Both the position numbers and the translations under genes were made by a program. A DNA stretch of 44,769 nt from a virus. Its lineage: Duplodnaviria; Heunggongvirae; Uroviricota; Caudoviricetes. Below are positions 9,925-44,769 of the stretch, in pieces. The notes beneath the pieces are model-generated. The model searched no databases. It was not told the DNA's origin and worked only from the letters and a program-made list of their open reading frames with translations. The stretch is from the IMG/VR virus record IMGVR_UViG_2909298281_000003; one strand, written 5' to 3'. Each line of letters begins with the position of its first letter. Within the stretch, counting starts at the first letter, position 1.

Positions 9925-10413
9925 ATGAGTCTTTTGAATGACGTTCAGAAATTCATTGAAGCCCATCCGGGGTGTACTTCCGGAGACATTGCGGATGCTT
10001 TTGCAGGTTACTCACGACAGCGCGTTCTGCAGTCAGCAAGCAAGTTACGTCAGAGTGGGCGTGTGGCTCACCGTTGTGAAGGGGATACACGCAGACATTT
10101 CCCGCGGCTGACTGAGATACCGCAGGAGCCGGAACCGCAACCAGTTCGTGAATCCAGACCTGTGCGCAATTTCTATGTCGGCACTAACGATCCCCGGGTG
10201 ATTTTGTGCCTGACCCGCCAGGCGGAAGAACTGGAGTCCAGGGGCTTATACCGTCGTGCTGCAACGGTGTGGATGGCGGCATTCCGTGAAAGCCACTCCC
10301 AGCAAGAGCGAAACAATTTTCTTGCGCGTCGTGAGCGGTGTTTACGGAAAAGCAGCAAGCGCGCTGTATCGGGTGAAGAGTGGTATCTGTCAGGGAATTA
10401 CGTGGGGGCTTAA
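9925..10413 (+). CDS. Hypothetical protein, possibly a PerC-like regulator
   Basis: 162-aa ORF, ATG at 9925 just after the O-like stop; C-terminal LYRRAATVW motif. Confidence 0.4.
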   Translation: MSLLNDVQKFIEAHPGCTSGDIADAFAGYSRQRVLQSASKLRQSGRVAHRCEGDTRRHFPRLTEIPQEPEPQPVRESRPVRNFYVGTNDPRVILCLTRQAEELESRGLYRRAATVWMAAFRESHSQQERNNFLARRERCLRKSSKRAVSGEEWYLSGNYVGA

Positions 10414-10739
10414 TGACGACGTTAACTCAATGCCAGCAGCAGGTGCTGGATATGCTGATTTCTTACCAGAAAGAACGTGGCTTCCCGCCAACCAATCAGG
10501 AGGTGGCTACCATGCTGGGATACCGTTCAGTGAATGCAGCGGTGGAGCATCTTCGCGCACTGGAGAAAAAAGGCGTCATCACGATAAAGCGTGGCGTGGC
10601 CCGGGGCATCACGCTTCATACCGCGGTGAAGGACGACGACAGCGAGGTGGCCGGGATTATCCGCGCACTGCTTGCTGGTGAGGAAAACGCCAGGCTGCGT
10701 GCAGCCCACTGGTTACATGAGAGGGGGCTGAAAGTATGA
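10413..10739 (+). CDS. LexA-N-terminal-like DNA-binding protein without peptidase domain
   Basis: Start overlaps previous stop (TAATG); winged-helix motif QEVATMLGYRSVNAAVEHLRALEKKGVI. Confidence 0.5.
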   Translation: MTTLTQCQQQVLDMLISYQKERGFPPTNQEVATMLGYRSVNAAVEHLRALEKKGVITIKRGVARGITLHTAVKDDDSEVAGIIRALLAGEENARLRAAHWLHERGLKV

Positions 10740-11943: not shown

Positions 11944-12939
11944 GTGACCGTGAGAGCACTACTGACCCCTGAAATTGCCCCGCGTATGGGGATCGTATTG
12001 TTCAGGCCCGGTTCAGAGCTGATGCCCCTGTTTATGCAGGGGCGTGTACTGCTGGAGCCTGAGCCGGAGCATTATTCATCTTTCGCCAGTGGTGCCGTTC
12101 CCGCGGCATCACAACCGCTGGCGGATGATCCTGCCGTTCGGGCCGTGTTCCGTAATGAGGCAGTGATTCGTCGTGCTGGTGGGGTGGAATGTCTTGAAAG
12201 CTGGTTACTTCGTGAAAAAGGCTGCCAGTGGCCTCATTCCGACTGGCACAGCGAGAACATGACCACAATGCGACACGCGCCGGGCGCAATCCGTCTGTGC
12301 TGGCACTGCGATAATCAGTTACGTGATCAGTTCACGGAGCGGCTGGAATCAATGGCAACGGATAACTGTGCCCATTGGGTGTTGTCTGTAGTCCGTCGGG
12401 ATCTCGATTTTAATGATAACCATGCCGTGACAATGCCGGAACTGTGCTGGTGGCTGGTTCGTAATGACCTGGCGGATGCCTTACCGGAAAGCGCAGCCCG
12501 TAAGGCACTGAGATTACCGAAGTCTGTTTTGCCGTCTGTCACCCGGGAAAGTGACCTTGTGCCTTCGGTTCCTGCCACCAGCATTATCCAGGATAAAGCG
12601 AAAAAGGTGCTGGCGCTGAAAGTGGATCCGGAGTCGCCGGAGTCTTTTATGTTACGCCCCAAACGTCGTCGCTGGGTTAATGAACAGTACACGCGCTGGG
12701 TTAAGACGCAGCCGTGTGCATGTTGTGGAAAGCTAGCTGATGATCCGCATCATCTGATAGGCCATGGTCAGGGTGGAATGGGTACAAAAGCGCATGACCT
12801 TTTTGTGCTGCCTTTGTGCAGAAAACACCACGACGAACTGCATGCGGATACCGTGGCATTTGAAGAGAAGTATGGCTCCCAGCTGGAGCTGATATTTCGT
12901 TTTATCGATCGCGCACTGGCGATTGGTGTGCTGGCCTGA
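11944..12939 (+). CDS. DUF968-family protein (YdfU/YbcO-like) with Cys/His-rich C-terminus
   Basis: C-terminal CACCGK ... [30 protein letters not shown] motif. Confidence 0.6.
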
Positions 12940-12956
12940 TTTTGTGGAGAAAGTTA

Positions 12957-13340
12957 ATGCGTGATATTCAGATGGTTCTTGAACGTTGGGGAGCGTGGGC
13001 GGCTAATAATCATGAAGATGTGACCTGGTCGTCCATTGCCGCCGGTTTTAAGGGATTAATTCCTTCAAAAGTAAAATCTCGCCCGCAATGTTGTGACGAT
13101 GACGCGATGATCATTTGCGGGTGCATGGCCCGTCTGAAAAAGAACAACAGCGATTTGCACGATTTATTAGTAGATTATTATGTAGTCGGTATGACATTCA
13201 TGTCACTGGCAGGTAAGCATTGCTGCTCTGATGGTTATATCGGGAAAAGGTTACAGAAGGCTGAGGGCATAATTGAAGGGATGTTAATGGCATTAGATAT
13301 CCGGTTAGAGATGGATATCGTTGTTAATAACTCTAATTAA
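12957..13340 (+). CDS. Q: Late-gene antitermination protein Q
   Basis: Position immediately before the lysis region; GGAGAAAG ribosome-binding site before ATG 12957; family assignment from memory. Confidence 0.6.
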
Positions 13341-13361
13341 TATGCCAATTGTTTACTGAAA

Positions 13362-13391
13362 GTTATTAAAAATGGGGCGTTGCAACGCCCC
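13362..13391 (-). terminator. Rho-independent terminator of the porin transcript
   Basis: Perfect stem ggggcg/cgcccc followed on the minus strand by ATTTTT. Confidence 0.6.
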
Positions 13392-13529
13392 CAAAAATAA
13401 AGGGTAATATATAACAGAAGGTTTATATAGTTAGAAGCAAGGTTGTGCTCCTAAAGGAAGTGGCTTGAGGGAGCCACTTATATGTTGGGGAGGCAACGCC
13501 TCCCGCAACATATCTTTTTCGTAATCAGA
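13362..13529 (-). ncRNA. ipeX: IpeX-like 3'-UTR RNA of the prophage porin gene
   Basis: 168-nt untranslated, hairpin-rich stretch between the porin stop and its terminator, the arrangement described for ipeX downstream of nmpC. Confidence 0.35.
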
Positions 13530-14627
13530 TTAGAACTGGTAAACCAGACCTACAGCAACGATGTCATCAGTGCTTACACCGAGTGCTTTAGTGAAGTCAT
13601 TTTTGTCAAGCAGGTTGATTTTGTAATCAACGAAAGTAGACATATTTTTGTTGAAGTAATAGGTTGCACCTACATCAACATATTTGACTAAGTCCTGATC
13701 GCCCCATACTCCAAGATCCTTACCTTTAGATTGCAGGTAAGCAACGGACGGACGCAGACCGAAATCGAACTGATATTGTGCAACAGCTTCGAAGTTTTGA
13801 GCTTTATTAGCAACGAAGTGATCAGCAAATACAGTCATATTCTGGGTTTCAGAATAGGTAGTGGCCAGGTAAATGTTGTTAGCGTCATATTTCAGACCTG
13901 CGGCCCAAACTTCTGCATTTTTACCGGAAGCAAATACTTCAGGAAGAACTTTCCCTGCATTAACTTGAGTGTCGGTACGATCAGATTTCGCATAAGTTGC
14001 ACCGATACCGAATCCTTCGTATTCATAGGTAGCAGAGAAACCGAAGCCATCACCGTTACCTTCGGTGTAGTTATCGAAATCGCTACGATCGTTTTTGCCT
14101 TGGTACTGAGCAGCAAAGTTCAGACCATCAACCAGACCAAAGAAGTCGTTGTTACGATAGGTTGCAACACCAGTGGTGCGACCAGTCATGAACACATCTG
14201 TTTGGGTCCAGGTATCGCCACCGAATTCTGGCAGAACGTCAGTCCACGCACCGATGTCGTATGCTACACCGTAGTTACGGCCGTAATCGATTGAGCCGTA
14301 GTCACCGAATTTCAGGCCTGCAAATGCAAGACGGGTTTTGTCTTTGGAGGAACCTTGAGATTCAGCGCGGTTGCCTTTGAATTCATATTCCCACTGACCG
14401 AAACCAGTCAGCTGATCGTTGATTTGGGTTTCGCCTTTGAAGCCCAGACGAACATAAGTAGTATCACCATCATCTGCATCGTTAGAGGAAAAGTAGTGCT
14501 TGGCATTAACTTTCCCGTACAGATCCAGCTTGTTACTGTCTTTATTATAAATTTCAGCTGCCTGAGCAGACATCGCCATCAGTACTGATGCAGCTACAGC
14601 AGAAATTGCCACTGTTAATTTTTTCAT
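13530..14627 (-). CDS. nmpC: Phage-encoded OmpC-family porin (NmpC/Lc-like)
   Basis: 365-aa ORF with signal peptide and C-terminal aromatic residue (…YQF). Confidence 0.9.
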
Positions 14628-15215
14628 CGTGAGCCCTTTTTTTTGAACTATTATTAAAAAATGATGTCACTGCGCGATAAATATTCATCTAATCAATGTG
14701 ATTATTTCAAGATGTAAGTTTTAGTTTCTCATTTAATTTGTGAAGTAGATCTCTATTTTTATCTGAACTTTTTCTATCGAAACCTATTTATGGCTCTTAT
14801 TTGAACAAAAATAAATCTATTAGCTAATTTATATTAATGGCTGTTATTTATGGTGGTTCTATAATTCGTCTGTTTAATTTAAACCAGCTAAAAATAACAC
14901 TGGAAATTATTTATTGGTTATTTGTTGAAGTTTTCTTATGTATTTGTGGTGATGTTTTGAACACTCGGTAGCATTCTCATAAATATCATTCAGTGGTTTA
15001 CGTACGTAAAAAATTGGTTATGCTGTTAAGAGTGGTTACTTCGTCACACAGCTTAAACCCGCCGTCGAGCTGGTTTTTCCATTTTTTGAGTCTCGATATT
15101 AGCTGATAACTCAATACCTGAGTTATTCACTGACTCGGAGTCAGTTACGTTTCTGCTTTTTTGCGATACGTTGTATTCCCTCAATTTACACCCGCTTTGT
15201 CTGCGAGGTGGGGTT

Positions 15216-15431
15216 ATGAAATTCATGGATAAGTTAACAACTGGAGTCGCCTATGGCACCTCAGCAGGTAGTGCCGGTTACTGGTTTTTACAGCTGCTCG
15301 ATAAAGTCACTCCCTCACAGTGGGCAGCAATAGGTGTGCTGGGTAGCCTGGTATTTGGCCTGCTGACGTACCTGACAAACCTTTATTTCAAGATTAAAGA
15401 AGATAAGCGCAAGGCCGCGAGAGGTGAATAA
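15216..15431 (+). CDS. S: Phage-21-type class II holin (pinholin S21-like), dual-start motif MKFM
   Basis: 71-aa product [26 protein letters not shown]…; two transmembrane segments. Confidence 0.85.
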
Positions 15432-15928
15432 TGCCTCCATCATTACGAAAAGCCGTTGCTGCTGCTATTGGTGGCGGAGCAATTGCTATAGCATCAGTGT
15501 TAATCACTGGCCCAAGTGGTAACGATGGTCTGGAAGGTGTCAGCTACATACCATACAAAGATATTGTTGGTGTATGGACTGTATGTCACGGACACACCGG
15601 AAAAGACATCATGCTCGGTAAAACGTATACCAAAGCAGAATGCAAAGCACTCTTGAATAAAGACCTTGCCACTGTCGCCAGACAAATTAACCCGTATATC
15701 AAAGTCGATATACCGGAAACAACGCGCGGCGCTCTTTACTCATTCGTTTACAACGTGGGTGCTGGCAATTTTAGAACATCGACGCTTCTTCGCAAAATAA
15801 ACCAGGGCGATATCAAAGGCGCATGTGATCAGCTGCGTCGCTGGACATACGCTGGCGGTAAGCAATGGAAAGGCCTGATGACTCGTCGTGAGATTGAGCG
15901 TGAAGTCTGTTTGTGGGGGCAACAGTGA
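15431..15928 (+). CDS. R: SAR endolysin (lysozyme with N-terminal signal-anchor-release domain)
   Basis: 165-aa ORF with Gly/Ala-rich N-terminal transmembrane segment. Confidence 0.85.
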
Positions 15929-16385
15929 GCAGAGTAACCGCGATTATATCCGCTCTGATTATCTGCATCATCGTCAGCCTGTCATGGGCGGTCAATCATT
16001 ACCGTGATAACGCAATCGCCTACAAAGTCCAGCGCGACAAAAATGCCAGAGAACTGAAGCTAGCGAACGCGGCAATTACTGACATGCAGATGCGTCAGCG
16101 TGATGTTGCTGCGCTCGATGCAAAATACACGAAGGAGTTAGCTGATGCGAAAGCTGAAAATGATGCTCTGCGTGATGATGTTGCCGCTGGTCGTCGTCGG
16201 TTGCACATCAAAGCAGTCTGTCAGTCAGTGCGTGAAGCCACCACGGCCTCCGGCGTGGATAATGCAGCCTCCCCCGACTGGCAGACACCGCTGAACGGGA
16301 TTATTTCACCCTCAGAGAGAGGCTGATCACTATGCAAAAACAACTGGAAGGAACCCAGAAGTATATTAATGAGCAGTGCAGATAG
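15913..16385 (+). pseudogene. Rz: Spanin Rz (i-spanin), frameshifted by loss of one C in the run at 16271-16275
   Basis: N-terminal frame reads lambda-like Rz to …GVDNAASP then fuses to the Rz1 C-terminus; the Rz C-terminus [36 protein letters not shown] is open in the adjacent frame to 16385. Confidence 0.7.
16145..16326 (+). pseudogene. Rz1: Spanin Rz1 (o-spanin lipoprotein) embedded in Rz, disrupted by the same single-base deletion
   Basis: [25 protein letters not shown]… lipobox; in this sequence the frame ends early at 16294 while the expected C-terminus [16 protein letters not shown] is in the Rz N-terminal frame. Confidence 0.65.
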
Positions 16386-16416: not shown

Positions 16417-16710
16417 TTATTTTGAGCAATACACACGCGCTTCCAGCGGAGTATAAATGCCTAAAGTAATAAAACCGAGCAATCCATTTACGAATGTTTG
16501 CTGGGTTTCTGTTTTAACAACATTTTCTGCGCCGCCACAAATTTTAGCTGCATCGACAGTTTTCTTCTGCCCAATTCCAGAAACGAAGAAATGATGGGTG
16601 ATGGTTTCCTTTGGTGCTACTGCTGTCTGTTTGTTTTGAACAGTAAATGTCTGTTGAGCACATCCTGTAATAAGCAGGGCCAGCGCAGTAGCGAGTAGCA
16701 TTTTTTTCAT
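16417..16710 (-). CDS. bor: Bor lipoprotein (serum-resistance moron)
   Basis: 97-aa ORF MKKMLLATALALLITGCAQQ… matching lambda Bor. Confidence 0.9.
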   Translation of the reverse strand: MKKMLLATALALLITGCAQQTFTVQNKQTAVAPKETITHHFFVSGIGQKKTVDAAKICGGAENVVKTETQQTFVNGLLGFITLGIYTPLEARVYCSK

Positions 16711-17000
16711 GGTGTTATTCCCGATGCTTTTTGAAGTTCGCAGAATCGTATGTGTAGAAAATTAAACAAACCCTAAACAATGAGTTGAAATTTCATATTG
16801 TTAATATTTATTAATGTATGCCAGGTGCGATGAATCGTCATTGTATTCCCGGATTAACTATGTCCACAGCCCTGACGGGGAACTTCTCTGCGGGAGTGTC
16901 CGGGAATAATTAAAAACGATGCACACAGGGTTTAGCGCGTACATGCATTGTATTATGCCAACACCCCGGTGCTGACACGGAAGAAACCGGACGTTATGAT

Positions 17001-17411
17001 TTAGCGTGGAAAGATTTGTGTAGTGTTCTGAATGCTCTCAGTAAATAGTAATGAATTATCAAAGGTATAGTAATATCTTTTATGTTCGTGGATATTTGTA
17101 ATCCATCGGAAAACTCCTGCTTTAGCAAGATTTTCCCTGTATTGCTGAAATGTGATTTCTCTTGATTTCAACCTATCATAGGACGTTTCTATAAGATGCG
17201 TATTTCTTGAGAATTTAACATTTACAACCTTTTTAAGTCCTTTTATTAACACGGTGTTATCGTTTTCTAACACAATGTGAATATTATCTGTGGCTAGATA
17301 GTAAATATAATGTGAGACATTGTGACGTTTTAGTTCAGAATAAAACAATTCACAGTTTAAATCTTTTCGCACTTGATCGAATATTTCTTTAAAAATGGCA
17401 ACCTGAGCCAT
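17001..17411 (-). CDS. ybcV: DUF1398-family protein (YbcV / lambda p78-like), AT-rich
   Basis: 136 aa from the internal ATG; position between bor and cos as in lambda and DLP12. Confidence 0.55.
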
Positions 17412-17696
17412 TGGTAAAACCTTCCATGTGATACGAGGGCGCGTAGTTTGCATTATCGTTTTTATCGCTTCAATCTGGTCTGACCTCTTTGTGTTTTGTT
17501 GATGATTTATGTCAAATATTAGGAATGTTTTCAATTAATAGTATTGGTTGCGTAACAAAGTGCGGTCCTGCTGGCATTCTGGAGGGAAATACAACCGACA
17601 GATGTATGTAAGGCCAACGTGCTCAAACCTTCATACAGAAAGATTTGAAGTAATATTTTAACCGCTAGATGAAGAGCAAGCGCATGGAGCGACAAA

Positions 17697-44188: not shown

Positions 44189-44769
44189 TGGCATTCAGAA
44201 TGAGTGAACAACCACGGACCATAAAAATTTATAATCTGCTGGCCGGAACTAATGAATTTATTGGTGAAGGTGACGCATATATTCCGCCTCATACAGGTCT
44301 GCCAGCAAACAGTACCTATATTGCACCGCCAGATATTCCGGCTGGCTTCGTGGCTGTTTTCAACAGTGATGAGTCATCGTGGCATCTCGTTGAAGATCAT
44401 CGGGGTAAAACGGTTTATGACGTGGCTTCCGGCGACGCGTTATTTATTTCTGAACTCGGCTCATTACCGGAAAATGTTACCTGGTTATCGCCGGAAGGGG
44501 AGTTTCAGAAGTGGAACGGCACAGCCTGGGTGAAAGATGCAGAAGCAGAAAAACTGTTCCGGATCCGGGAGGCGGAAGAAACAAAAAACAGCCTGATGCA
44601 GGTAGCCAGTGAGCATATTGCGCCACTTCAGGATGCTGTAGATCTGGAAATCGCAACGGAGGAAGAAACCTCATTGCTGGAAGCCTGGAAAAAGTATCGG
44701 GTGTTGCTGAACCGTGTTGATACATCAACTGCACCTGATATTGAGTGGCCTGTAATACCTGAAGTTTAA
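44188..44769 (+). CDS. tfa: Tail fibre assembly protein Tfa
   Basis: 193-aa ORF, start overlaps the stf stop (TAATG); ends with a stop at the window edge. Confidence 0.85.

Follow-up and report, generated by a model that had tools for sequence, protein, structure and literature searches.

Our analysis indicates that the locus between the late antiterminator gene Q and the lysis genes of this phage is very likely an lc/nmpC lysogenic-conversion cassette, placed after Q and ahead of the late promoter PR' in a lambdoid prophage of the PA-2/DLP12 type. Here the window means the whole stretch of 44,769 nucleotides that was analysed (IMG/VR record IMGVR_UViG_2909298281_000003, a virus of the Caudoviricetes), and the coordinates of the features are collected in Table 1. 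On the whole, the cassette would work as a self-contained minus-strand unit, whose parts are a CRP-dependent sigma-70 promoter within an AT-rich regulatory stretch, the porin gene and the ipeX 3' UTR. The unit would close with an intrinsic terminator on the minus strand, 22-25 bp short of the Q stop codon. Lysogens of this phage are predicted to transcribe the cassette from its own promoter, and the transcript would give both the phage porin and a UTR-derived RNA of the kind reported to lower OmpC and OmpF, so that the porin set would be exchanged. Meanwhile, the Q protein would act in trans on the PR'/qut site at 14997-15045, and late transcription, starting near 15031, would leave the porin behind and enter the genes for holin, endolysin and Rz. 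Our own analysis shows what the parts are, how they are structured and conserved, and that the PR' module is homologous to those of other phages, while the activity and regulators of the K-12 promoter, the size and targets of IpeX and the function of PR' in Stx phages are taken from the literature.

Table 1. Features of the porin cassette and its neighbours in the window, with the proportion of variable columns among nine intact cassettes
Feature	Position	Strand	Variable columns	Basis
Q late antiterminator, QuuD type, 127 aa from ATG	12957..13340	+	4.7%	Pfam PF06530 Phage_antitermQ, E 8.5e-54
21-bp spacer, Q to terminator			29% (6/21)	
Porin 3' UTR, ipeX orthologue by homology; four hairpins and terminator	13362..13529	-	10.7%	164/168 vs K-12 DLP12 nmpC
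Predicted intrinsic terminator of porin/ipeX transcript; hairpin 13374-13391, then AUUUUUAAU	13365..13391	-		Terminator scan, fold -13.9 kcal/mol
Terminator-like hairpin, 15-bp stem with one bulge (13480-13513), then CUUUUUCG	13480..13521	+		Fold -21.3 kcal/mol, z = -5.6
Lc/NmpC porin CDS, 365 aa	13530..14627	-	20%	Porin_1 and 362/365 identity to PA-2 Lc
Porin signal peptide	14559-14627	-		Position per record J02580
Porin start, 5' UTR and proximal promoter	14578-14757		2-7%	
AT-rich block, 26.1% GC	14628..14960	.		Lowest-GC 333-bp stretch of the window
Conserved porin 5' UTR and promoter region	14628..14757	-		2-7% variable columns
CRP-like site TGTGA-N6-TCTCT	14739-14754	-		Homologous site annotated in PA-2 J02580
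Distal AT-rich part	14758-14996		18-28%	
PR' module segment	14997-15085		2.2% (2/89)	
Predicted late promoter PR': TTTACG, 16 bp, TATGCT	14997..15024	+		Column-for-column alignment with 933W pR'
Predicted initial transcribed region	15025..15093	+		Alignment with 933W qut/terminator
Invariant AAGAGTGGTTAC	15028-15039	+		Late-promoter module
Putative qut counterpart	15038-15045	+		qut annotated in 933W
Hairpin and T-runs after PR'	15049-15093	+		Conserved hairpin arms
Segment up to the holin	15086-15215		19%	
P21-type holin, EssD-like, 71 aa; late lysis operon gene 1	15216..15431	+	5.6%	PF04971, E 2e-35
Endolysin, lysozyme family	15431-15928	+		PF00959; follows the holin

The surroundings of the cassette are those of a lambdoid late-control and lysis region. 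The porin gene on the minus strand is flanked by Q and by the P21-type holin gene, both on the plus strand. To the 5' side of Q are genes for RusA, a KilA-N protein and a DUF968 protein, while the endolysin, with RrrD of K-12 and the SAR endolysin of 434B as homologues, is followed by Rz/Rz1 on the plus strand and then by Bor on the minus strand. The Q gene, whose mechanical open reading frame starts at TTG 12942, encodes a protein with 99% identity to K-12 QuuD; the Q proteins of H-19B (81%) and 933W (78%) belong to PF06530 as well, and the 933W record itself annotates its Q as similar to those of H-19B and DLP12.

Actually, the cassette is already known, in that the porin, the ipeX UTR and the position have all been described before. 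According to record J02580 and to references 84-85 as they are cited in PMC3333887, the presence of the lc/nmpC porin in the Q-S-R region of lambdoid prophages is long established. The closest case is the lc locus of phage PA-2 (GenBank J02580), which is 97.8% identical in DNA over 13303-15300 and has the same orientation, 3' UTR, CRP-annotated upstream region and downstream lysis genes. The difference consists of three amino acids (362 of the 365 residues are identical to Lc) and scattered bases, with no structural change; our guess is that the three amino-acid differences are errors of the original PA-2 sequencing. The DLP12 prophage of E. coli K-12 shares the gene order quuD, nmpC (reverse), essD, rrrD, rzpD/rzoD and borD, the sole difference being that its nmpC is split by IS5 while the gene in the window is intact. 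Both DLP12 and 434B have about 95% DNA identity to the cassette, and both carry nmpC::IS5. In complete E. coli genomes, at least 80% of the segment 13300-15300 is present in 2,465 of 5,426 (about 45%), and many E. coli chromosomes contain this segment at 100% identity.

The minus-strand open reading frame is by homology a full-length general porin of the OmpC family, Lc/NmpC type, as the sequence-only reading had already proposed for the strand opposite to Q and the holin. It matches the Pfam profile Porin_1 (PF00267) with an E-value of 1.8e-156, residues 29-365 covering positions 1-337 of the 337 in the profile, and scores above the cut-off of the NCBIfam OmpC subfamily; the closest solved structures are OmpC/OmpK36. 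The N-terminus agrees with the signal peptide annotated in J02580, and the C-terminus (...VYQF) ends with Phe. In many phage records this porin is labelled OmpD. Salmonella OmpD and E. coli OmpC, OmpF and PhoE have the Porin_1 fold family in common with it, but the porin of the window differs from them in being borne on a prophage and in having its own regulatory region and the ipeX 3' UTR. The reading frame is intact in all nine phages compared, with alleles of 360 and 365 amino acids.

For conservation, nine intact cassettes with 89-96% overall identity were compared (variable columns in Table 1). Within the porin gene, the variable columns are distributed as 10%, 7% and 44% over the three codon positions, a pattern which indicates purifying selection, and the hypervariable patches lie in 13558-14100. 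On the non-coding side, 14997-15085 is the best-conserved segment of the cassette, its flanks being 17-19% variable.

The ipeX RNA was reportedly described by Castillo-Keller et al. in 2006, in the DLP12 prophage of E. coli K-12. The earlier suggestion of a structured 168-nt UTR ending in a terminator is well borne out: its minimum free energy is -62.4 kcal/mol against -33.1 ± 3.7 kcal/mol for shuffled sequences (z = -8.0), none of the 200 shuffles folds as well, and a terminator closes it at 13365-13391, where the GC-rich hairpin is accompanied by an A-run on the plus strand and is thus specific to the minus strand. The likeness to IpeX can be put more strongly than before. The UTR is identical to the 3' UTR of K-12 DLP12 nmpC, where ipeX was described, at 164 of 168 positions, and by this homology 13362-13529 is a true ipeX orthologue rather than an IpeX-like element. 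The four differences fall in hairpin 3 (where an A-U pair becomes G-U), at two bases of the terminator loop and at the last base. Among the UTR homologues (n=11), differences are few and mostly in loops, giving too little diversity for a covariation test; in the variant ev207/4C10, the top two pairs of hairpin 2 are lost without compensation.

For the K-12 RNA itself, IpeX is presented in PMC12197685 as a 167-nt DLP12 RNA that is part of the porin transcript; in the window, 157-165 nt lie between the stop codon and the T-run. As summarized in papers that mention it (PMC12197685, PMC5069750, PMC3617542, PMC3333887), IpeX is processed from the porin transcript and lowers OmpC and OmpF; on the involvement of Hfq and base pairing, such citing papers conflict. 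In addition, ipeX RNA is measurable in clinical isolates (PMC7177473). In a lysogen of the present phage, the porin and the 3' UTR should be expressed on one transcript, because the gene here is intact, unlike the IS5-split nmpC of K-12. Such an intact gene would combine a co-expressed substitute porin with an RNA lowering OmpC and OmpF, and may thereby influence phage receptor availability and antibiotic permeability.

PA-2 is said to adsorb to OmpC as its receptor, and its lysogens reportedly have reduced OmpC and OmpF. If OmpC is indeed the receptor of PA-2, the cassette would be a device of superinfection exclusion.

The same UTR segment carries a second structure on the opposite strand. 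The plus-strand hairpin at 13480..13521 is antisense to IpeX hairpin 1 and has its T-run on the plus strand only, and may terminate transcription that runs out of Q; the segment thus contains two strand-specific terminator structures facing each other. This raises the possibility, which we regard as tentative, that 13362-13529 is mainly a two-way insulator parting the Q and porin transcripts, with sRNA activity as a secondary matter. Both the minus-strand terminator and the stable plus-strand hairpin with its CUUUUU fit such a role, as does the restriction of each T-run to one strand; however, the two further internal hairpins would be superfluous for termination, and the citing papers report a trans effect on OmpC and OmpF for IpeX cloned alone. 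The two roles are in fact compatible.

Upstream of the porin, the sequence-only reading had taken some 590 bp as strongly AT-rich and connected them with H-NS-type silencing. The composition claim stands for one part of the region. The segment 14628-14960 lies at the 0.13th percentile of GC content among the 333-bp stretches of the window, whereas 14961-15215 has 41.6% GC and belongs to a separate plus-strand element; together, 14628-15215 has 32.8%, against a window mean of 52.4%. The silencing claim fares worse. It is unlikely that the cassette is a xenogeneic gene kept normally quiescent by H-NS owing to its AT-rich upstream region, although the low GC content (26% over 333 bp, the minimum of the window) is what such a view would expect and the porin gene nmpC is said to be quiescent in strains of K-12 and B. 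The defect in K-12 is the IS5 in the coding region, the promoter being unaffected, and our literature searches gave no paper linking H-NS to nmpC. Moreover, the K-12 promoter PnmpC is active: it is of the typical sigma-70 kind, lies in the 199 bp that precede the ATG, has a transcription start mapped to a G by 5'-RACE, is activated by CRP through two sites and repressed by OmpR, IHF and MprA, and is the source of the sole detectable read-through ins5A mRNA in the cell (PMC11677980). Homologues of nmpC show strong expression in CFT073 at 37 °C, and in strain AW1.7 too (PMC12890032), and the measurable ipeX RNA of clinical isolates noted above likewise argues against silencing. H-NS may still bind the cassette with a modulating, non-silencing effect.

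In the window, candidate transcription starts of the porin are the G residues at 14675, 14673 and 14670, and if the start is G14675, the CRP-like site would be centred at -71.5, a class I position.

A further consequence may be considered for the two facing terminator structures. If the plus-strand hairpin terminates, the 3' end of the Q transcript (from 13341 to about 13520) would overlap with IpeX, which spans 13529 to about 13366 on the minus strand, and the two would be complementary almost throughout, over about 150 nt. On this ground, the porin/IpeX transcript, which would be abundant in the lysogen, could restrain Q mRNA as an antisense RNA in cis, while on induction N-antiterminated transcription from PR that continues beyond Q could shut down porin and IpeX; we consider this proposal quite improbable. 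The anti-Q RNA of lambda is an analogue. If true, the lysogenic-conversion cassette would be tied to the lysis-lysogeny switch.

Some annotations of earlier records are not retained as features here. The plus-strand ORF1 at 13482-13691, annotated in PA-2 and 434B, has no Pfam match and contains stops or frameshifts in six of eight homologues. Similarly, the 44-aa frame at 14837-14971, annotated in some records, has an internal stop in seven of eight homologues and lacks the ATG in four of eight. The second CRP site of the PA-2 record (about 15031-15051) is located inside the transcribed region predicted for PR' and its half-site spacing is off the consensus, and is thus a probable coincidence. 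No tRNA genes are found within the window. Neither the Rfam scan of the whole window at gathering thresholds nor that of 12800-15600 at E ≤ 1 gave a match to an IpeX or StxS family; the two scans together returned nothing besides a chance SNORD123 match and IS009 at 44531-44729, and for IpeX there is no model in Rfam.

As for late transcription, the promoter PR' very probably comes after the porin and before the holin, so that Q and PR' enclose the porin. On the plus strand, the conserved island 14997-15085 reads TTTACG, 16 bp, TATGCT, GT, TAAGAGTGGTTAC and then the hairpin AAACCCGCCGTCGAGCTGGTTTTTCCATTTTTT, and it is found downstream of Q and the porin, about 190 bp upstream of the holin. It aligns with the pR' annotated in 933W (NC_000924, 20666-20693) and with H-19B just after Q, and over the alignment of the window, K-12, PA-2, PhiR55_1, H-19B and 933W, the hexamers, the spacing, TAAGAGTGGTTAC and the hairpin arms are conserved. 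With this piece as query, BLAST matches the 3'-terminal segment of Q in about 300 Stx phages. The module TTTACG-N16-TATNNT-...AAGAGTGGTTAC occurs in the window as a single copy (14997-15039), and none of 100 shuffles contains a match. The earlier idea that transcription from PR' must read antisense across the cassette is therefore not supported, for the pR'/qut homologue is located at 14997-15093, past the porin; with the module between porin and holin, late transcription would not cross the porin. The sole possible source of antisense transcription of the porin would be PR-initiated, N-modified read-through past Q.

Q proteins act in trans on qut sites, as in the reporter systems of lambda and H-19B, and a separation of 1.65 kb between Q and PR' would thus pose no functional problem. 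It is highly improbable that PR' lies directly after Q as in lambda, with late transcription running about 1.9 kb antisense through ipeX, the porin and its promoter to the holin: pR' does adjoin or overlap the end of Q in lambda, 933W and H-19B, and phage 1H12 has a promoter-like TTGCTG-17-TAATGT with a terminator directly after its related Q, but the promoter scan of the plus strand between Q and the porin (13341-13530) shows no promoter-like site, the spacer between Q and the UTR is the least conserved part, the pR'/qut homologue is found elsewhere, and the displaced layout recurs in PhiR55_1. The Q of 1H12 is 85% identical and yet comes without the PR' motif, which is a point against the PR' reading preferred here.

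The displaced position of PR' is in accordance with the report that the essD-rrrD-rzpD/rzoD operon of DLP12 is regulated from a region of its own immediately before essD and is subject to Q-type control (PMC7918800). The PR' module of DLP12 is identical to that of the window but for G/T at 15071. This G-to-T change weakens the hairpin after PR', which folds with -6.7 kcal/mol (z = -0.2) here against -12.2 in K-12 and -14.9 in 933W, and the terminator scan did not call it. No canonical second terminator is found between PR' and the holin. In the Sakai strain, RNA from PR' has been mapped to read beyond the equivalent hairpin, and a 258-nt PR'-tR' RNA has been mapped by dRNA-seq and Term-seq (PMC7547250). 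For the TTTACG/TATCAT promoter of Sakai Sp5, counting from a start placed 7 nt past the -10, the T-run of the second terminator is reached after about 258 nt; this match is a consistency check, as the coordinates in PMC7547250 are about 142 nt off the RefSeq version.

Compared with the Stx phages, the window differs mainly in what surrounds the module. The modules of 933W and H-19B share with that of the window the -35 TTTACG, the 16-bp spacer, TAAGAGTGGTTAC and the hairpin AACCCGCCG...GGTTTTT, while the -10 is TATGCT in the window and TATCAT in the Stx phages, and beyond the first hairpin the window has no homologue of the 258-nt StxS precursor. In Stx phages the 3' part of Q reaches into the module, and the cargo (tRNAs, stx) is located downstream of the module on the same strand, whereas in the window Q and the module stand about 1.65 kb apart, with the porin cassette on the reverse strand in between. 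PhiR55_1 carries a different gene at the equivalent place, encoding a 148-aa lipoprotein in reverse orientation between a related Q and the same PR' motif. This suggests that accessory genes in reverse orientation have entered the space between Q and PR' repeatedly. With the late promoter displaced by about 1.65 kb from Q, reverse genes in the gap would escape late transcription, in contrast to the cargo of the Stx phages, which lies downstream of PR'.

A terminator-like hairpin directly after PR' is kept throughout the Q family of the window, and strong examples lie immediately 3' of PR' in Sakai Sp5 and in phage 933W. The published length of the Sakai PR' RNA is 258 nt (PMC7547250), so the transcript passes the first hairpin and reaches a second terminator. 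No canonical second terminator was found in the window from the hairpin to the holin. The hairpin itself is polymorphic in its 3' arm at position 15071, which is T in the window, PA-2, ev099 and ev207 and G in the K-12 prophage DLP12 and the other five compared phages, and the fold is weaker with T (-6.7 kcal/mol) than with G (-12.2 kcal/mol).

The interval between Q and PR' is occupied differently in PhiR55_1, which has a related Q and shares the PR' motif: there the gap holds another reverse-strand gene, encoding a predicted lipoprotein of 148 aa with a lipobox-like LLSATIISGC. Reverse-oriented accessory genes may have settled in this gap repeatedly. Phage 1H12, whose Q is 85% identical to that of the window, has a promoter-like TTGCTG-17-TAATGT and a terminator directly after Q, followed by a reverse-strand gene for the lipocalin Blc, and the TTTACG...AAGAGTGGTTAC module is absent from its locus (L005 4016-4620). 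Closely related Q proteins may use different qut sites. Past the lysis cassette, the window carries a DUF1398 gene downstream of bor, both in reverse orientation, as DLP12 likewise has further reverse-oriented accessory genes there. A second AT-rich block, with 333-bp windows below 32% GC, overlaps the DUF1398 gene.

Coordinates of features in the window and in the comparison loci
Feature	Sequence	Position	Strand	Description
LexA-domain protein gene	window	10380-10739		119 aa, mostly LexA DNA-binding domain (PF01726, residues 12-76)
Porin hypervariable patches	window	13558-14100
Hairpin after PR'	window	15057-15074
Rz ORF	window	15913-16326
Rz1 ORF	window	16145-16294		truncated
C run	window	16265-16276
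Second AT-rich block, DUF1398 and bor genes	window	16981-17546 and 16417-16710
DUF1398 gene	window		-	YbcV-like, 177 aa
Rfam IS009 match	window	44531-44729	+	229.5 bits (gathering score 117); near right end
Hairpin 3' of PR'	933W (L006)	762-784
Hairpin 3' of PR'	Sakai Sp5 (L016)	770-795
Gap gene	PhiR55_1 (L007)	1990-2436	-

The porin varies unevenly among alleles. Its N-terminal third is nearly invariant, while in the hypervariable patches as many as 60% of the columns in a 60-bp stretch are variable. Phage alleles also differ in length by five codons (360 vs 365 aa). Diversifying selection acting on exposed loops is one possibility for these patches.

In the spanin genes, the window has a C5 run where K-12 rzpD/rzoD and 434B have C6, and this single-base deletion shifts the frame in both embedded genes: Rz1 is cut short, and the Rz ORF ends in the C-terminal sequence of Rz1. 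The shorter run is either a genuine homopolymer mutation inactivating the spanins or a sequencing error. In the nin-like region, the gene for the LexA-domain protein is located just upstream of rusA.
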